From positions 52,700,001-52,764,000 of the forward strand of contig NC_043015.1 in NCBI RefSeq assembly GCF_006345805.1: 64,000 bases of DNA, read 5' to 3'. This document shows, piece after piece, positions 3,975-62,984 of this stretch. This DNA is from Octopus sinensis. Its lineage: Eukaryota. Made by a program: the position numbers and the translations under genes. A model generated the notes under the pieces. The model had not been told where the DNA came from, ran no database searches, and saw only the letters and a program-made list of their open reading frames with translations. Position 1 is the stretch's first letter, and every line of letters starts with the position of its first letter.

Positions 3975-4241
3975 CAAACATATGCATACAGGCACACACA
4001 CACACATAAATGCATACAGGCACACACACACACATAAATGCATACAGGCACACACACACAGACAAATGCATACAGCCACACACACATGCAAATGCATACA
4101 AGCACACACACACATATGCACACACACATACACAAATGCATACAGGCACACACACACACATACAAATGCACACACATACACAAATGCATACAGGCACACA
4201 CACACACATACAAATGCACACACATACACAAATGCATACAG

Positions 4242-7920: not shown

Positions 7921-8001
7921 TCGATGTGTAGAGGACCACAAGTACATACCCAAACTATTTAGTCTGGGATGCACCAATTCCACCCAAATCATTTACTAAC
8001 C

Positions 8002-8500
8002 TAGTAGTAGTAGTAGTAGTAGTAGTACTAGTAGTAGCAGCAGCTAGTGGTGGTGGTAGTAGAAATAAAAACAGTACCACTAATCATAGTAGTAGTAATA
8101 GTAGTGGTGGTAGTGGTAGTAGCAGAGGTAGTCATAGAAGTTGTATTGGTAGTAGTATTGGTAGTAGTAGAAGAACAAGAGGTAGTCATAGTAGTATGAG
8201 TAGTAGTAGTAATAGTAGTGGTGGTGGTGGTTGTAGTAGCAGAGGTAGTCATAGAAGTTGTATTGGTAGTAGTGGTAGTAGAACAAGAGGTAGTCATAGT
8301 GGTGGTGGTGGTGGTTGTAGTAGCAGAGGTAGTCATAGAAGTTATATTCGTAGTAGTGGTAGTAGTAGTAGAACAAGAGGTAGTCATAGTGGTGGTGGTG
8401 GTAGTAGCAGAGGTAGTCATAGAAGTTATATCAGTAGTAATAACTGTATTAGTAGTAGTGCCACCACCACCACCAGTAGTAGTAGCATGGCAGTAGTTTT
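8002..8500. repeat. Higher-order repeat built on (AGT/GGT)n
   Basis: AGCAGAGGTAGTCATAGAAG at 8121, 8238, 8322 and 8406 (spacings 117, 84, 84). Confidence 0.9.
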
Positions 8501-8729
8501 ATAGCAAAGGGCTTCTCAAGACTACTTGTACGGGAAACCAAGGAAGAAAAAAAAAAAACCAAAAAGACTGAAAAGGCGGGGGGGGAGGGAATTTATTATG
8601 TAAGATATTGAGAAAAATCTAGCGAAACGAAACGGAGGCAGCAGTAAAAGACGAAGGTGATAACAAAAGAAAAAGAAAAAAATTTATATATTACAGACAC
8701 TAATGGAGGAGGAAGAGAATGGAGGGCGG

Positions 8730-8792
<63 letters not shown>

Positions 8793-9029
8793 TGCCAAGT
8801 AGCAGCAACAACAACAACAATAATAATAATAAATAACAGGATATTTTCTCTTCAGACAGACATATCAACAAATTATAAACTGTAATAGACTTCAGTAATG
8901 TGCCAATAATTGGCAATGGAACAGAAATGGTAGTGGTGGTGGTGGTGGTGGTGGTTGTAGTGGTTGGTGGTCGTTGTCGTAGTCGTGGTAGTGGAGAAGG
9001 AGGTAGTGGAAGTGGTGATGGTAGAGGCT

Positions 9030-9490
9030 GGAGTAGCACTACAAGTAGTGGTGGTGCTGGTGGTGGTAGTAGTAAAGGCTATAGTAGCACTACAAGTAGT
9101 GGTGGTAGTACCGGCTATAGTAGTGGTGGTGGTGGTAGCGGCTATAGTAGTACAAGTAATGGTGGTAGTAGCGGCTATAGTAGTACAAGTAGTGGTGGTG
9201 GTAGCGGCTATATTAGTACAAGTAGTGGTGGTGGTAGCGGCTATAGTAGTACAAGTAGTGGTGGTGGTAGCAGCTATAGTAGTACAAGTAGTGGTGGTGG
9301 TAGCGGCTATAGTAGTACAAGTAGTGGTGGTGGTAGCAGCTATAGTAGTACAAGTAGTGGTGTTGGTAGCGGCTATAGTAGTACAAGTAGTAGTGGCTAT
9401 AGTAGTACAAGTAGTGGTGGTGGTAGCAGCTATAGTAGTACAAGTAGTGGTGGTGGTAGCAGCTTTAGTAGCACCTCAAGTAGTGGTGAC
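9030..9490. repeat. 33-bp minisatellite TAGTACAAGTAGTGGTGGTGGTAGC(G/A)GCTATAG
   Basis: About ten tandem units within a wider (AGT/GGT)n tract spanning 8928-9660. Confidence 0.9.
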
Positions 9491-10796
9491 AACAGCAACA
9501 GTAGTAGTGGTAGAGGTTATAGTACCACTACAAGTCGCAGTGGTGGCAGCAACAATAATAGTAGTAGTAGTAGTGATGGTAATAGATGTAGTTGTGATAG
9601 TAGTAGTAGTGGTGGTAGTGGTTGTCATAGCACTACAGCAGGTGGTGGTGGTGGTGGAGGCAGTAAGATCAATCCACCTGAACAGCAAAAGAGGGGAACG
9701 AAATACAAACACAACCCGTCTCACTTTTTGGTTTCCCATTTTCTACATGTTCGTTATTTTTTTTTAATTATACCACCCATTATGATGGAAGAGAACTTAT
9801 GTTGTACAGCGCAGAGTTCCTCTCTATGTAAATGTGGATGTGAGTGAGAATCTGCATGTATATGTGTGTGTTCTTTTTTTTTTTTTCATATATACAAATA
9901 TAAATGTGTGTATCTATAAATGTGTGTGTGTGTGGTGTGTGTGTGTGTGCATAGAATGTGAAGAAAATAAATAAAACATTGCTTTACTTTGCTTATTGTT
10001 ATGATATAAAATTCATACTGCTGCCACATCACACACAAACATATACACATAGCCACAGACACACACATAAGCATAAATGTTGTGAGTGACTTTGTAGTTA
10101 AGAAGTCCGAATTGAAACATGGTTGTGGGTTCAGTTTCTATAGAATTCATTATATTATGCATACAAGCGTCTGTGGAGTACAAAGCCACTGATAAGCTAA
10201 ACACAGTAAGTAAATAATCTCAACTGGCCGAACACCTATGAACACCCATCATAGAAAATTGTGAAAAATCTATTTACTTTCATACACCTATGTTTCGTAA
10301 GAGTTAGAGGAATCCAGATGTATGTCTATGTATGAGGAAGATATGTTTGTATTTTTTTTAAAGACTCGCATGTATTCGTAATAATGAATGGGGGAAAAAG
10401 TTTTCCCCCCACCAAATTTCAGGCCTGATGGCCAGGCTATTCCATCAGTTACAATGACGGTTACAGCTGATCCAATCAATGGAACAGCCTGCTCAGGAAA
10501 TTAACGTCCAAGTGGCTGAGCACTCCACAGACACGCGTACCCTTAATCTAGTTCTCATGGGGATTCAGTAAGACACAGAGGGTGACAAGGCTGGCCCCTT
10601 TGAATTACAGGTACAACACATTTTTACCAGTTGAGTGGACTAGAGTAATGTGAAATGAAGTGTCTTGCTGAAGGATACAACACTGCCAGAAATTGAACTC
10701 ATGGCCTAATGAGTGTGAACGAAATATTCTAGCCACAAAACCACACACCTTGAGCCTAGCATAGAAAGGCTATTATTATTATTAGTAGCAGTAGTA

Positions 10797-12088: not shown

Positions 12089-12092
12089 TTAA

Positions 12093-12314
12093 CCCTTTTG
12101 TTACTGTATTTATTTTGAGATGCTCTGTGTTTCTTTCAATTAATTTTGAATATAACAGAGAATTTAGTAAAATAACTTAGTTATCATTAAGCTAGTGTTT
12201 GGAACATTAACTGTGACTAAGGTTTGGTGGAAGATTTTAATTCAGAACTTATGAAAACAAGACATTTGTACTACAGAGCCAGAGGTGGTTTCAGCCAGGT
12301 TGGTATTGAAATGG
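12093..12314 (+). mobile_element. piggyBac-like MITE family P1, copy 1
   Basis: TTAA on both sides, CCCTTT... start and degenerate ...AATGG end. Near-identical to the copies at 12346, 23509 and 46821. Confidence 0.8.
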
Positions 12315-12345
12315 TTAAGAATTGTTTCTCTATTATATATTTTAA

Positions 12346-12567
12346 CCCTTTTGTTACCATATTTCTTTTGAGAAGCTCTGTGTTTCTTTCAATTAATTTG
12401 GAATATAAAAGAGAATTTAGTAAAATAACTTAGTTATCATTAAGCTAGTGTTAGGAACATTAACTGTGACTAAGGTTTGGTGGAAGATTTTAATTCAGAA
12501 CTTATGAAAACAAGACATTTGTACTACAGAGCCAGAGACGGTTTCAGGCGGGTTGGTATCAAAAGGG
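12346..12567 (+). mobile_element. piggyBac-like MITE family P1, copy 2 (tandem to copy 1)
   Basis: TTAA|CCCTTTTGTTACC...GGTATCAAAAGGG|TTAA. Confidence 0.85.
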
Positions 12568-12878
12568 TTAAAGAAACCTCATTTAACATCTTCCACTGAA
12601 ATTTCTTTTGAGTTCATGTTTTAAATACTAGCTTAATATGTGTGAATCAGGTGAATTTTTCCAAGTTACAACTATTGAATAATTTATACAAGAGACGATT
12701 CGTTCGTTGTTCAGGAACTTCAGTGAGTGACCGCTTTTTCTAACGACAACAATTCAGTATTGACGAGCTGTCATCTGAAGAAGTGGTCACATGTGGAAAC
12801 TTTCAGCTAGCAGCATATGGCATCAGCTGAATAATATATATGGAAAACAGATGTTGAATACTGATTATATACACACAC

Positions 12879-55821: not shown

Positions 55822-56051
55822 ATTATTATTATTTATAAGGCAGCGAGCTGGCAGAATCGTTAGCACACTGGACGAAATGCTTATCGGTGTTTCGCCTGCT
55901 GATACGTTCTTAGTTCAAATTCTGCCTAAGTCGACTTTACTTTTCATCCTTTAGGGGTCGATAAAATGAGTACCAGTTGAACACTAGGGGTCGATGTAAT
56001 CAACCCATCCCCTCCCCCAAAGTTGCTGACCCCATGGCAAAATTTGAAATC

Positions 56052-56124
<73 letters not shown>

Positions 56125-56125
<1 letters not shown>

Positions 56126-56285
56126 TATATCGGTCCAGGACGTCACCAACAGTAAACAACAGGAAATATGAAAACAAATGAGTTGAATACACAAATGAGA
56201 AACAAATGGAAAACAGGACAAGTAACATAAAGAACGACCCTTCATCAGTTGTCGGCTGTCTATCTACTCCTCATTTCGAGTATGT
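56125..56285 (-). mobile_element. Probable Penelope-like terminal fragment
   Basis: The reverse strand contains CTCGAAATGAGG...CAACTGATGAAGGG followed by a T-rich tail. Confidence 0.3.
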
Positions 56286-56406
56286 GTGTGTGTGACTATA
56301 AAAACAAGCTTCTATACATATCCCTACCTACTAAACCCTATTTACAAAATACTCACCTACCCTACATGCATATATACATTTAGATACACACATATATACA
56401 TATGCT

Positions 56407-56437
<31 letters not shown>

Positions 56438-56754
56438 TATATATGCACATACACATATGCACCTATTTTGTCATCATTGTTTTACAAATGTCTAATTCTT
56501 GATAGCAAAGGTTAAACAAGCCTCTTTAAGAAGCCGTCTCATTCTCTCTTTCTTTGAGTGTATGTCTATGTCAGTTATGGGCAAGCTGCGACCCACAGGT
56601 CTTTCTAAATGGCACGCCTAATGAAAAATTACATTGAATTTCTTATAGTGGGACGGCCCACATGATTGTAAGCCCACTTCTTGAAAAAGAGTACCCATGC
56701 CAGGAGTGTACACACACACTCTCTCACACACACACACACCACACACCACATCTG

Positions 56755-56995
56755 TGGAGGCACATACTGAGCAGTGTGGGTGTCAAATTCATGAACATAA
56801 GATTGTAGTTTCAATTCCTGGGTCAGGCAATTTGTCATGTTCTTGAGCAAGACACTTCATTTCATGTTACTCCAGTCAACTCAGCAGGAAAAAGAGAGAA
56901 TCCTACAACAAGACTGGAGTCCCATCCAGGGGCAGAATTCACGCACAGTGGAAACTAACAAACCATCCCCAAGAGCCTAGATGGTTTAGGAAAGA
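56755..56995 (+). mobile_element. tRNA-derived CORE-like SINE family C (representative copy)
   Basis: GTTTCAATTCCTGG B-box followed by GTTCTTGAGCAAGACACTTCATTTCA..CTCCAGTC.ACTCAGC. Other copies lie at about 10430-10750(-), 14830-15045(-), 16640-16790(-), 20050-20170(-), 33170-33360(-), 50655-50870(+) and 58040-58205(-). Confidence 0.7.
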
Positions 56996-57198
56996 GCTTT
57001 ATCCTTGATATATCTTTTAGCTTTTACTTGTTTCATTCATTAGACGTTGGCCATTCTGGGATGCCACCTTGAAGAATTTTTAGTCGAATGAATCAACCCT
57101 GGTGCTTATTCTATCGATATCTTTTGCTGGTCTGCTAAGTTACAGGGACATAAACACAGAACACCAATTGTCAAGCAGTGACGTGGGACAAGCACACA

Positions 57199-57286
<88 letters not shown>

Positions 57287-57809
57287 GTAGCACTTCAGTT
57301 TACGAACACCTCTGATCACGAATAAATCATGCTATATATGTATGTATATATGTATATAGTACGGATGAAATTGCATATAGGAACACAATGCAATGGGTAT
57401 ATACAATAAGTTGTCAGGTTGATTTACCACTTAAAACTCTGACTTGAATTGCAACTAAAACGAAAATTGGTCTTGTAGCTACCAAACAATGAATGGCTGT
57501 AAGTGATTCATCATTCTCACTCTCTTTAATATATATATATATATATATATACATACACACACACACATACAGATAAATATGTACATTGGCTGTGCGCTTA
57601 TTGGGGCATTTTGGTGGGCCTTAGAAATGCTTGGTGGAGCCCATCTCCTTTCAGAGTATTCAGTCCCTCGTGAAGTTTAGCCTGCTACCAAGATGTGGCT
57701 GAGAATAGTCTCAGAGCCGAAAGTAAGTGTCAGGTGAGAACCATTGCACCTGTTCATCCCAAAGGGTGCTACTGCTGCAGGAAACCAAGGTATTCTGTTT
57801 TTACCTGTG

Positions 57810-57967
57810 AAAACCATGGCCTGACAACATCAAGGACTGGACAGGTCACAAACAGTATAACACTGCTACGTATGAGAGAGAACAGAGACCAGTGGCAGCA
57901 AATGACTGTAAAAGTATCTACAGTGGTACCCAAACAATTGGCTGCATCAGTTAAGGGAACTTGATGA
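57810..57967 (+). mobile_element. RTE-type LINE (or LINE-tailed SINE) extreme 3' end
   Basis: WPDNIKDWTG followed by TLLRMRENRDQWQQM matches the WxDxIxxWTG...xRxxWR terminus of RTE ORFs. Confidence 0.7.
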
Positions 57968-58689
57968 AGGATACATTTATATATATATAATCACATTATT
58001 GACCAGACTCAGATATTACGTATCACTCCACTCATCACAATGGGCTTTTGCATTGCTTCTGCCTCTGAATGACACCACCCCACTGGCTAGGTGAGCAGGC
58101 CAACATTCCTCCCCCGATCAGAAGTGGAGATGACTGGAACAATGTGAAATAAATTGTTTTGCTCAAGAACACAACACACAGCCACATCTGGGAATCAAAT
58201 CCATGACGTAAACACACCACCATCAGTTGTCAAGCAATGTTGGGGGGAACAAACACAGATACACAAACATATATACACTCATACATACGCATATACAACA
58301 GGCTTCTTTCAGTTTGTCTATCAAATTCACTCACAAGGCTTTGGTTGGCCCGAGGCTATAGTAGAAGACACTTGCCCAATGTGCCACGCAGTGGGAATGA
58401 ACCCGGAACCACATGGTTGATTCACAGCCACTCAGATGTATAAGTGTATTGATAATTTTCTATTTGAGAGTTTTTTGCCATTTTTACTCATAAGATCCCA
58501 TGTTTTTGGTCCATGTTGCTTGTTGTTGAGCCCCAACTTATCTCCGAGTAAACCTATGGTCAAAATAATGTTATCTTTGACCATCATGAATGTATGTAGG
58601 ACTACATTATCCAATGTCTCTTTCCTGTTTTCCAAGATAGTTTGGGCTGTTTGATCCAACTTGTTGCACATGTGTGGACATTTTACATA

Positions 58690-58898
58690 TATATATAAGC
58701 AAAAATAAATCTCTGAGTGAGGTATACACTTTTTCGATATCAGTGTCTTTACGTCACTGGAAAAAAGTATATTTATTTGCAGAGGAAAGCCTACTTTTCA
58801 TTGACAGTCATGATTGTCACACGCTGATGACGGGTCAATACCCAGAAACTCGAGTCCGTGTGTATCATAAGTTGAAGACGGGAAGGATGGCTTCCCTT

Positions 58899-58900
<2 letters not shown>
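58690..58900 (+). mobile_element. Penelope-like element 3'/pLTR relic carrying the hammerhead
   Basis: Frameshifted translation just upstream (LYVTGKK / KKVYLFAEESLLFI) loosely resembles the PYxxxxKxCxLCxxEKLxI C-terminus of Penelope-like ORFs. Hammerheads with palindromic stem III are typical of these elements. Confidence 0.45.
58810..58868 (+). ncRNA. Type I hammerhead ribozyme motif (predicted cleavage after GUC, C58856)
   Basis: Stem I CACACG (58818-23) pairs with CGTGTG (58857-62) and extends as ATGAT/ATCAT across an internal loop. Core CTGATGA is at 58824-30. Stem II is GGGT-caat-ACCC with a C.A at the 10.1/11.1 position. GAAA is at 58845-48, followed by palindromic stem III ACTCGAGT and the GTC cleavage triplet. 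Confidence 0.85.
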
Positions 58901-58941
<41 letters not shown>

Positions 58942-58951
58942 AGAAAAAGAT

Positions 58952-58998
<47 letters not shown>

Positions 58999-59890
58999 TG
59001 TCTGATGAAGACTAGCAGACCAAAACTTTGAGGTCACTGTCATGCTTCTTGTAAAAAGTTTAATAAACATGGACTCGCACTAAAAAATATTGAGTAATCC
59101 TTCAGTTTAATGTTGCTAAATTGTTTTTATAACTTGACATAGAAACAAACAATACATTATTTCCTTATCTGTGTGTGTGTGTATGTGTGTGTATATATAT
59201 ATATATATATATAAACTTCTTGTGAATGAGTCACCAAGACCAACATTAAACTGCGAGCAAAGCAAACTTGAACACCATTAATTATTTACACACAATCAGG
59301 AAAAGAAAAATATCTTTAGTGCTTGCATACACGCACGCACGCGCACACACACACACACACACACAGGGATAGATATACATACAAGTGCACACGCAATTAT
59401 CAAACTGACTGGGTTTTTTTCCATTTGCTAAACTCTATGTCAGCAACAGGCAGTAACAGCATTATTTTCAAGTGCCACATGATTTATGATCACAAGAATT
59501 GAAAACGACCAATAAATGATCTCTGTTCTGAAGAACCTACTTGACGATTTGGTCAACGCAAGGCTATAGTTTAGCACAGTGGAACTGAACCCAGAATCAC
59601 ATCATGCTCAAGAAGCAAGTTTCTTAACTACACAGATATGCTTCTGTCTCTGATTATTGAGATAGCAAGTCAACAGAATTGCTAGCAAACTGAAAAAACA
59701 GCTGGGTGACCTTCCCAACGTTGGCCAGTTTATAGTGCATACTGGGCTCTTTTTTGTGACACCAACACTAGTGAAATCACCAAGCAACATGTAAAACAAA
59801 AAGAAATGGAAAAGCTCCCTCAACTGAGTGTGGGAGAAGGGCATTTGTGAGACAGGAAGGGGGCCTTATATCGAGTGGTGGAGGCTAATG

Positions 59891-60380
59891 CAGTGGTTTT
59901 CAACCAAGGTTCATACAACCCTTGTGGTTCCACATAAGATTTTGTTGCTAAAGTTTATCTACAATAAACTGGGTATACTTCTACAGTATACAAAACATTT
60001 TAATCTTTTCTACTCTAGGCACAAGGTCTGGATTTTATGGGGTGGGTGACAGTCGATTTAGATCAACCCCAGTACACAACTGCTACTTAATTTATCAACC
60101 CTGAAATGATAAAAGGCAAAGTCAACCTCAGTGGAATTTGAACTCAGAACATAAAGACAGGCAAAATACCACTAAGCATTTTACTTCATGGTGCTAATGA
60201 TTCTGCCAGCTTGCCGCCTTACACAAAATATTCTAATGATTATTTTTATACAATTCCTAATAATATTTAATTCTAAAAATATAGAATTTTTTAAACATCA
60301 AATGGCTCTCAGGGTCCACCTGAGTAAAAGAGGAACCGAAAGGCTCCTTCAGTAAAAAAAACAATGGCTGAGAACCGCTG
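59891..60380. mobile_element. hAT-like MITE family H1 containing a SINE
   Basis: CAGTGGTTTTCAACC...GGCTGAGAACCGCTG termini and TSD GGCTAATG/GGCCAATG (7 of 8). Confidence 0.8.
60003..60220 (-). mobile_element. SINE family A inserted in a hAT MITE
   Basis: Full copy with imperfect TSD ACAAAACATTTAAT/ACAAAATATTCTAAT. Confidence 0.85.
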
Positions 60381-60544
60381 GGCCAATGTATGATAGTCGA
60401 ACAAGCACATATGTTATACTATAGAGGACATACATGGCTACCCTGTATTATATGAAAGTGGGAAAGGAGCAACAGGAAGAGAGATAACAATGATGGTGAC
60501 AGGATGTAAGAGGTAAACTGCACACAACACCTTTTCACCCAGCA

Positions 60545-60735
60545 TTCACCCTCAATCTCCATTCATGCATACACCACCTCCACCAAAGATTGAACCTTGG
60601 TGCTGTACATTACACTTTCGCTCATTTATCTGATGCTTGCTCAGTCTTTCTCGTGACTAATTACTCTGCGTTGTTGCATTTCATACTTGCTAACATCACG
60701 CATCCAATGATGTGTGAAGTTAGCCTATATCATCA
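60545..60735 (-). mobile_element. Highly decayed RTE-like fragment
   Basis: Minus-strand HHWMRDVS.. resembles the region seen at 24130-24280. Confidence 0.3.
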
Positions 60736-61665
60736 TTAATTGATAGGCAAGCGGGAGAAGGCTCGTTAATTGAGATTATTATCAGTGAAAATAACGAGGT
60801 TGCTATTGGTGAAAATAACATCATTTGGATCCCCCATGGTGGTGGTGGTGGTGGTGGTGATGGGATAACCAATAAAGAAACTTCTTGTGGTGTATTGTCT
60901 TGCTGGAAATAACAACAACATCTTCCTCAAATCACACTTGTCCATTTCAAAATATATAGGAGACTGCATTCGCTGTAGTCCTACACACAATGTGTCTGAA
61001 TTAAAAATGTTAAAAAAGACAGGATGGCCATGACTGGGATGCCGTTGATCATAAGCTAAGTTTGCTCCATCTGGCCTGACCTGGGGATAAGCATCAACAA
61101 TGATAACCATGGAAATTTGAGTCAACAATGAAGCCACTTTGTGTGTGTCTTCAATAGCTAGAAACAGCAGCCAAATCTCCTTCAAATGTAAGAATTGACA
61201 GTGAGGGCTGCATTAACCAATCAAAATGAAGTCTGGGATACACTGTGTCTGAATATGTAAGACAAGACTACAAGACTGTCATGGTTGGACTGACCTGCTC
61301 TTAAAACAATAACAAGATAAGAGGCAAACTTGATCCTTGCCCACATCCCCCAACCTGATCACCCCCTATGCTGTATAGATGGTATCCTCCAAATTAACAA
61401 AGGAGGAAGAGTAGAGAAGGGGATGGAGTGAAAAGGAATTCCTTCTCCCAGTCCAGTCCTGTCAATTCTTATTTTATCAATTTCAGCAAGAATCCTGGTG
61501 GGGAGTGTGAAAGGTCAAGTTGACATTCCGCAGACAGAACGCAAGAAAGTGGAGAGAAGCAGACACCAAAATTACCCAAAGCATTTATAGCCTGGCACTT
61601 TACCATTTCTGACACCTACTCCAGGGGGGAAAGTCAGGTATTTCATTTTATTTCTTATCTACAGA

Positions 61666-61908
61666 CATACATACATACATGCATATGTACATATGAACAT
61701 ACATATGTACATACATACATACGTACGTACATACATACGTACATACATACGTACATACATATGTAAATACGTACATATGTACATAAACATACATACATAC
61801 ATAAACATAAATACATATGTACATACATATATTTAAACATACATACATATGTATACAAACATATATATGTAAACATATGTACATATGTATATATACACAC
61901 ACACATAC
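61666..61908. repeat. Degenerate (TACA)n satellite
   Basis: Read directly. Confidence 0.9.
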
Positions 61909-62984
61909 AGTGATTCTGTTCTGAATTTACTAGAATTAATCATTTCTAGTCTGTCTATTTTTTTTAATGTTTTTTAAAAGGTCTTATTTAGCCCTAGGTC
62001 AGAAAAATTATGAAAAGCCTTCCTACTGTTGCCCACCCCCACCCACTTGAGTTGCCCCGTGCCTATGAGAAGGCAAGCCAAAACGAAACTCATTATCTAA
62101 CATGTCTAAGGTAGGATGTGGTTTGGGCAAGATTTAGTTGCTATTTCTAGTAAATCAAAGGACCACATTGAGGCTGCCTCATTGACTGGGGTGGGGTTAG
62201 GGTTTGCGTTAGGAACAGTGAGACTGATTTAAATGAAGCTAAATTTGAAGATCTGCAAGTCAATGGCTGTAAGGGAAAAAGCCTTCTTCTCAAAACTGTC
62301 AGCCTTGCATTTAAAGCAGAAACCATTATTATCACAACAGACATGGAATAGAGAGGACAGGTTATTAATAATGTTGCAAACGGTGATGAAAAGATTCTAA
62401 TAAACCCAGCTGACTAACTGACCAAATGATTAATCAAACAGTTGGTAATAAAAGAAGTGAAACGGACCTAGTGTAAGTGTTTCTGTTGGCATAATGACCA
62501 ACCCTCTCAAGATACATTATTTTTTACTTTGTAGACTGTATTTTGTAAAACTGTATCAACAACTTAGATGGTATTTGTTTCAAATCATGGAAGGCCAGTC
62601 AAGGACAATATGTATAAAGGACCAAGCTAGGGAGTTTACTCTTTTCCTGGAATATATTTACGTAATCAACTCTGGTCTATTTACAGAAGCATTATCTCAA
62701 GAGATGTTGGTAAATGAGTGGGCAGAAGGTTAACCTAGCAACTTGGTTCAAATCCTACAACTAGCACAGTTGGGTATTTGTTATATCTAACAGAGAGAAT
62801 TCTCATCTCTTCAGCCAAAAAAGAAAACTTTTAAGAGATCATACAGCCTGCTGGAATGTAATTAATGACCTCACTTTGGAATAATGTGCTTTGTGTTTCA
62901 TTCTCATTGCGTGGTACAGCAAGAAGCCAATGGCAACACTGTGTCTGTGTTTCCCTGGTTCCGATCATGTGCTGATTAGAAATA

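Follow-up and report, generated by a model that had tools for sequence, protein, structure and literature searches.

The 64,000-nucleotide stretch of Octopus sinensis DNA analysed here (the window) contains, on its + strand, a short segment with the appearance of a hammerhead ribozyme, which raises the question of whether the motif is genuine, to what kind of element it belongs and whether it has a role at the locus in which it lies. The preliminary description had placed a type I hammerhead at 58810-58868, and every element that it listed is present at its place in the sequence. The motif comprises a distal helix extending stem I (58810-14/58864-68), a UGU bulge (58815-17), a 6-bp stem I (58818-23/58857-62), the core segment CUGAUGA (C3-A9; 58824-58830), stem-loop II (58831-58844), the GAA of the core (58845-47) and a self-complementary stem III, ACUCGAGU (58848-58855), which provides two base pairs and a tetraloop in a monomer and an 8-bp duplex in a dimer; the predicted cleavage point follows C58856 (C17). 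The conserved hammerhead core (C3-A9, G12-A14, A15.1-U16.1 and H17) is complete, whereas the paired 10.1-11.1 position of type I hammerheads, present in a sister subfamily, is replaced by a C·A mismatch. Stem II is also present, but not as the four pairs and 4-nt loop originally proposed: in the Rfam register, obtained from a canonical sister copy, the C10.1·A11.1 mismatch (C58831 and A58844) is followed by three G-C pairs closing the 6-nt loop UCAAUA (GGG-UCAAUA-CCC, 58832-43). The loop CAAACA of a sister lineage cannot close a U-A pair, which also counts against the shorter loop.

Taken alone, the locus is weak evidence for a ribozyme, since its Rfam score is low and its core pattern is not rare. 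The suggested comparison with the Rfam hammerhead models did return Hammerhead_1 (RF00163), which the motif resembles in core, stem sizes and loop II type, but the match (58819-58863) scores only 14.5 bits (E 0.68) against a gathering score of 34, the C·A position accounting for the low value. The core pattern by itself occurs three times in the window, where 0.5 matches are expected. Folded as a monomer, the motif gives unremarkable z-scores (-0.07 over 101 nt and -1.6 over 63 nt). The reality of the motif is settled instead by its family, through the score of a sister copy differing at five positions (32.2 bits, E 9e-7, likewise short of the gathering score) and through changes on both sides of base pairs in relatives. 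The Rfam matches over 56000-62000 were microsatellite-driven miRNA only and were set aside, and at gathering thresholds Rfam returned nothing in two family loci described below, L217 and L186.

The 2.72-Gb genome was searched for relatives. Pairing is kept in 88% of cells across 19 hand-picked ones, and both-sided changes affect 14 cells in eight pairs, compared with 4.0 in shuffles, none of 500 shuffles being as high, a contrast that relatedness inflates; helices I-III around the core are supported by this covariation. The inner bases of stem III change from UCGA to UGCA, CCGG, CUAG, UCGG or CUGG, all of them self-complementary if G·U is allowed. Among 163 distinct sites in 319 loci, which are not independent and were partly fetched by base-fixing patterns, stem III is self-complementary at 156 and loop II ends in YA at 154, and the U-rich stem I bulge is kept. 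A contact between loop II and the stem I bulge is known from the Schistosoma structure. In L186, a young C·A copy with two near-identical arms, the mismatch is retained while stems I and III carry compensating changes. In a genomic-type sequencing run, agreement with the window sequence is lost immediately before 58811 in 57 contigs and immediately after 58867 in 56, so that what more distant relatives have in common is precisely the hammerhead block, their flanks being different. Selection on the fold thus acts in the source elements.

The motif lies within a dispersed repeat. Positions 58722-58901 match other genomic copies at 89-94% identity (at least 44 matches, with 40 of 2432 candidates scored), and these copies extend on both sides and overlap themselves head-to-tail with a period of 347-358 bp, defining a unit of about 353 bp (352-353 bp, 42-43% GC) that is non-coding, with no long open reading frame. 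When the unit is numbered on copy L019, the core starts at position 216 and the predicted cut follows position 248. The window copy consists of a forward arm of 180 bp (58722-58901, + strand, unit positions 116-293) and an inverted arm or tail of 33 bp (58695-58729, - strand, unit positions 83-115) flanked by short (AT)n. About 130 bp of the 3' end of a normal copy are missing, and an (AT)15 microsatellite (58903-58933) occupies the broken 3' end. The copy is a solo half unit, and it has neither a tandem partner nor the cassette carried by some relatives. Elsewhere the family forms tandem copies that each contain a hammerhead, in arrays of up to seven units with no open reading frame within (L217). 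Circular folds of the unit gave z-scores of -5.0 and -5.3 against 60 shuffles each, as for a highly self-paired monomer, and 19 of 100 consensus pairs in the unit fold show both-sided change in five sequences, one of them out of register. In three sequencing runs guessed to be RNA, family contigs of both the C·A and the G-C type are present; the unique flank of the window copy (58430-58573) has no cover in them, which is uninformative on transcription.

The self-complementary stem III had been taken to point to cleavage as a dimer, in keeping with the dimer model proposed for hammerheads with a weak palindromic helix III (PMC4209133), and the computed folds bear this out. As a monomer, the 59-mer of the window is predicted to prefer an inactive fold (-15.8 kcal/mol) to the active one (-10.8 kcal/mol), while the predicted minimum for two strands (-38.1 kcal/mol) is a double hammerhead; a G-C copy folds alike in both states. 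No partner hammerhead of the family occurs within the window, and since the predicted fold needs a dimer, the window copy, a broken fragment, is probably inert. The expectation that it would be better preserved than its surroundings was not borne out. Within its subfamily, 12 core positions decay like the flanks among paralogues (7/228 compared with 67/2010 non-CpG cells, 3.1% and 3.3%, p=1.0), a second comparison gave 1.4% and 2.9% (p=0.43), and this equal decay across copies gives no sign of a role at the window locus. That selection might keep the copy as a host ribozyme, for example one cutting a transcript through the locus, would agree with the absence from the 59-nt hammerhead of any of its eight differences from the subfamily, a result short of significance (p=0.06); such a role is nevertheless extremely improbable, given not only the decay pattern and the missing partner but also the 160 exact matches to a 33-mer of the motif, which reveal many equally intact copies, and the lack of any Pfam domain in the 25 long open frames, out of 65 in the window, that were scanned.

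The ends of the copies bear on how the family spreads. Insertion marks were scored in 29 distinct loci chosen by their 3' part alone (the first 30 of 680 matches). In 28 of them an arm ends at unit position ~68 or ~110-119, while the 5' ends are scattered; an inverted arm is present in 15, with a ~45-bp tail on one arm alone in at least 12 of these, and a TA-type microsatellite lies within 45 nt of a 3' end in 11. Upstream DNA specific to the element beyond the unit is absent from these loci except for one with a cassette, and the 5' breakpoints show no clear pile-up at the predicted cleavage site (position 248). The marks described for EN+ Penelope-like elements (10.1101/2021.04.23.441226) include partial tandems, arms that are inverted and truncated at the 5' end, a one-ended tail of 30-40 bp and a bias towards microsatellites, a correspondence that argues for Penelope-like insertion of the octopus repeat. 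Together with the family features, these marks uphold the initial assignment of the motif to a type I hammerhead of a Penelope- or retrozyme-type element. The fixed 3' end, 5' truncation, inverted arm and one-ended tail are those of a non-autonomous Penelope-like element, and no reverse transcriptase was found in the unit, in its ~2.2-kb long form or in the window, which sets the repeat apart from autonomous ones. As a separate observation, the 5' breakpoints of short copies cluster at unit positions ~300-320, near a small hairpin (L118, L121, L123, L125, L128, L131, L133, L141 and L142).

Intact Penelope-like open reading frames of 782 residues, with reverse transcriptase and GIY-YIG parts, exist in the genome. 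One intact family out of many (22,493 first-look candidates) was compared with the unit, and none of its 30 loci matches it, with no detectable shared sequence; this family carries a U3-A8-type hammerhead-like motif of its own. Penelope-like reverse transcriptase or endonuclease fragments also adjoin family copies or cassette relatives at four loci (L049, L093, L181 and L185), although the Penelope-like family at L185 was rejected as a mobilizing partner for want of similarity to the unit. These fragments, the insertion marks shared with autonomous elements and the resemblance of frog retrozymes to pseudo-LTRs (10.64898/2026.07.22.740005) would be accommodated if the repeat were the pseudo-LTR of an autonomous Penelope-like element, its short copies and tandems being by-products of 5' truncation without an independent retrozyme cycle. 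This is improbable, however, as the unit is joined to itself up to seven times without an open reading frame, none of the 29 3'-anchored loci leads into a reverse transcriptase, the sole long form found contains an ORF1-like cassette without one, and the intact family examined does not match the unit. A retrozyme inserted by Penelope-like machinery remains the preferred reading.

The C·A mismatch was correctly noted in the preliminary description as standing where a G-C pair is canonical, but it is not a lesion of this copy. It is shared by 30 of the 33 other aligned copies, and the corresponding pattern has 511 exact matches genome-wide, against none for controls; the mismatch is therefore a trait of whole subfamilies rather than a sign of decay at the window copy. 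The sister subfamily CUGACGA-GAGG-UCAAUA-CCUC-GAAA, with G-C at 10.1-11.1, is fully canonical and has 703 exact matches, and versions with other stem III loops have 359 (controls again 0 in both cases). The substitution A58844G, once suggested as a repair, would give a C-G pair, in contrast to the natural canonical form, which is G10.1-C11.1 with an adjoining A-U. In a younger branch, represented by 15 of the first 30 matches, U4C has been added to the C·A, and a distant lineage with units of 357-358 bp, also arrayed, has G-C, G·U or U·U at this position. The best trees (built from subsampled rows, 104 of 124 and 64 of 126) nest the G-C subfamily within C·A diversity; a tree placing all of the paired-core lineages together is not rejected (p-AU 0.086), so a regained G-C is not claimed, and the G-C subfamily may also have arisen by recombination from an unsampled donor.

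The subfamilies also differ in arrangement. Tandem neighbours occur in 7 of 17 G-C clusters but in none of 29 C·A clusters (p=0.0004), and among the first 100 G-C matches 42, in 16 of 58 clusters, are in tandem; the contrast is confounded because the G-C subfamily is the younger, its units being 97.7-99.2% identical while C·A copies are 2-4% diverged. The pair 10.1-11.1 is described as the most conserved after 15.1-16.1, with G-C as its usual form, rare natural mismatches known and U·U the best tolerated, and U4C as lowering activity to a level still sufficient in a viroid (PMC3088659). By analogy with that conservation, C·A is likely to lower ribozyme activity.

The mismatch might even abolish catalysis, so that the C·A subfamilies would spread through linear read-through transcripts that stay uncut, with cutting and circularization confined to the G-C, G·U and U·U forms. 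The array contrast, the conservation of G10.1-C11.1, the fixation of U4C on top of C·A and the pair that C10.1 adds to the predicted inactive helix CGGGU/ACUCG would all follow. The predicted dimer minimum of the one U4C copy folded is, moreover, not the double hammerhead, which indicates, U4C being fixed in its subfamily, that the family can spread with a damaged core. We consider complete inactivity unlikely, because C·A persists, alongside an intact core, stem III self-complementarity and a YA loop end, across subfamilies 10-25% apart, the compensating changes in L186 arose with C·A kept, C·A dimers, though rare, exist (L009, L021 and L224), and the age difference may account for the missing arrays. 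A weakened but selected C·A ribozyme is preferred. In the seven-unit array L217 (- strand), six units show strict alternation at one position (A,G,A,G,A,G), such as a dimeric template would give; this is a pattern at one site of one array that would arise by chance about one time in ten.

Taken together, these observations suggest that the element in the window is most probably a retrozyme copy, truncated and likely inert. The 353-bp retrozyme unit is non-coding, its hammerhead is expected from folding to cut in dimeric form alone, and Penelope-like machinery likely inserted its copies. In the proposed cycle, tandem units at source loci would be transcribed into multimers, in which the palindromic stem III would join two hammerheads and cleavage after GUC would release 353-nt monomers; by inference from mussel, coral and axolotl retrozymes, these would be ligated into highly self-paired circles. 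A Penelope-like reverse transcriptase/GIY-YIG protein would then prime synthesis at a fixed position, ~170 nt 3' of the cut, and copying would proceed back across the ribozyme, often beyond a single unit, with insertion into AT-rich DNA and often with an inverted second arm. Because the copies begin ~170 nt beyond the cut and extend back across it, a circular or an uncut multimeric template is needed. Within this scheme the C·A subfamily would have a slower yet still selected ribozyme, and the young G-C sister would make most of the arrays. Multimeric transcripts cut to monomers, circularized by ligation and reverse-transcribed by a Penelope-like enzyme have been proposed for animal retrozymes (PMC7229834); a 2026 preprint describes local amplification as favoured for retrozyme arrays and found eight of nine predicted retrozyme dimers uncleaved in vitro (10.64898/2026.07.22.740005).

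In some copies the unit is interrupted just 5' of the core by a cassette of ~1.9 kb, which brings them to ~2.2 kb. Its reading frame, which is unbroken over 404 residues in L186, contains a CCHC zinc knuckle, and the cassette ends in AATAAA and A-rich bases. The frame resembles molluscan CCHC proteins and ZCCHC3-type RNA-binding domains, a lead only, and named homologues of the protein come only from Octopus. Such insertions into the retrozyme stem I were located at L098:2834-5019 (- strand), L097, L151 and L186:2050-3700, the cassette itself having 14,843 first-look candidates. The cassette is bounded by a direct repeat of ~14-15 bp of the target that includes part of stem I, so that the downstream hammerhead stays whole; the two ends match with 0-3 differences in the full-length cases listed, and at 20 junctions the duplicated target follows the sequence of each host subfamily. 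Cassettes also stack in tandem, separated by the duplicated target, and another cassette family, with 49% identity to the first, is found at a site 3 nt further along. The host-specific target, the tandem cassettes and the shifted second family disfavour the reverse view, in which the 353-bp unit would derive by deletion from a parental 2.2-kb form. The cassette is more likely to be an ORF1-only retroelement that has inserted repeatedly and site-specifically into the 5' arm of stem I. An ORF2 behind it was not found in 20 ten-kb loci, nor was a longer homologue, although the latter result is weak evidence.

ORF1-only or target-specific non-LTR retrotransposons are exemplified by HAL1 and the Tx1 clade. 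The cassette resembles them in its ORF1-like frame with a zinc knuckle, in its AATAAA and A-rich end, in duplicating ~14-15 bp of its target and in re-inserting in tandem. It differs in that no ORF2 was found with it, that its target in these copies is the stem I arm of a hammerhead and that homologues were found only in Octopus. Related cassettes also occur upstream of other hammerhead-like motifs (L190 and L177) and within LTR-like sequence, following a purine tract (L176, L183 and L184), and the preference for stem I is thus not exclusive.

The retrozyme class and its Penelope-like link have already been published (PMC7229834; 10.64898/2026.07.22.740005), and the octopus family shows every assessable feature both of non-LTR retrozymes and of Penelope-like elements of the non-autonomous kind. 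As described for animal non-LTR retrozymes (Cervera and de la Pena 2020, PMC7229834), the family has a non-coding unit of 150-450 bp with less than 45% GC, a type I hammerhead of canonical size with a weak stem III, dimers to multimers, a predicted self-paired circle and co-existing Penelope-like elements; units of known retrozymes measure ~350-390 bp in the mussel Mytilus and include Rtz_331 and Rtz_353 in the axolotl (PMC7229834; Li, Clavereau and Pollet 2026, 10.64898/2026.07.22.740005). The octopus family differs in the C10.1·A11.1 of its dominant old subfamilies, where the axolotl has U·U, in the cassette that some copies carry in stem I and in having no homology found to the one autonomous family examined. 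It also displays Penelope-type insertion marks copy by copy, whereas in the retrozyme papers these were inferred from co-occurrence and homology only. The minimal hammerheads of Penelope-like pseudo-LTRs, as described by Cervera and de la Pena (2014, PMC4209133), share the type I topology, the palindromic helix III, the dimer model and the tie to Penelope-type insertion, but have a short stem I, a stem II of 6-8 bp, G10.1-C11.1 with one extra base after A9 and an attached reverse transcriptase ORF; the octopus motif has a 6-bp stem I with its extension, a four-position stem II, an extra base that faces A and no such ORF attached. The octopus is unnamed in the main text of the two retrozyme papers (PMC7229834; 10.64898/2026.07.22.740005), and literature searches turned up no octopus retrozyme, no C·A core shared by a whole family and no cassette that targets stem I, although supplements or repeat libraries may list the family.

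The family therefore extends the known retrozyme class to an octopus. Its near-identical natural units differ in their cores (C·A, C·A with U4C, G-C, G·U and U·U) and in the frequency of arrays, which makes the role of the hammerhead in Penelope-like elements and retrozymes directly testable. A bolder reading, that ribozyme strength sets the insertion pattern and that an ORF1-only retro-parasite targets the stem I arm of the hammerhead, is offered tentatively, the chances being rather against both parts holding together. If it were true, a mismatched hammerhead (C·A, later with U4C) would have produced short copies for most of the family's history, while lineages with a paired or U·U 10.1-11.1 would have switched to circles and multimeric arrays; the target duplication would spare the ribozyme, and the parasite would ride the retrozyme as a ~2.2-kb protein-coding ribozyme RNA. 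Should the site-specific passenger be confirmed, one parasite would be exploiting another by targeting its ribozyme.

Other features were observed in passing. The window contains a 253-bp tandem duplication (12089-12571), a long TAG/GTG-rich degenerate repeat region (7932-9847) and, at 58997-59150 (+ strand), a decayed remnant of another old repeat (41 matches with 75-82% identity, from 1055 first-look candidates), relatives of which carry a degenerate motif resembling a minimal hammerhead, with a broken core in the version of the window. Further hammerhead-like repeat families, with a longer stem II and an extra base after A9, are represented at L169/L177, L171/L179, L180, L187, L190 and L233. 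A young intact Penelope-like element (L227:1057-3405) has a 782-residue frame for reverse transcriptase, linker zinc finger and GIY-YIG, and in its 3' end (~4045-4080) a U3-A8-type hammerhead-like motif with a palindromic stem III was recognized by eye.
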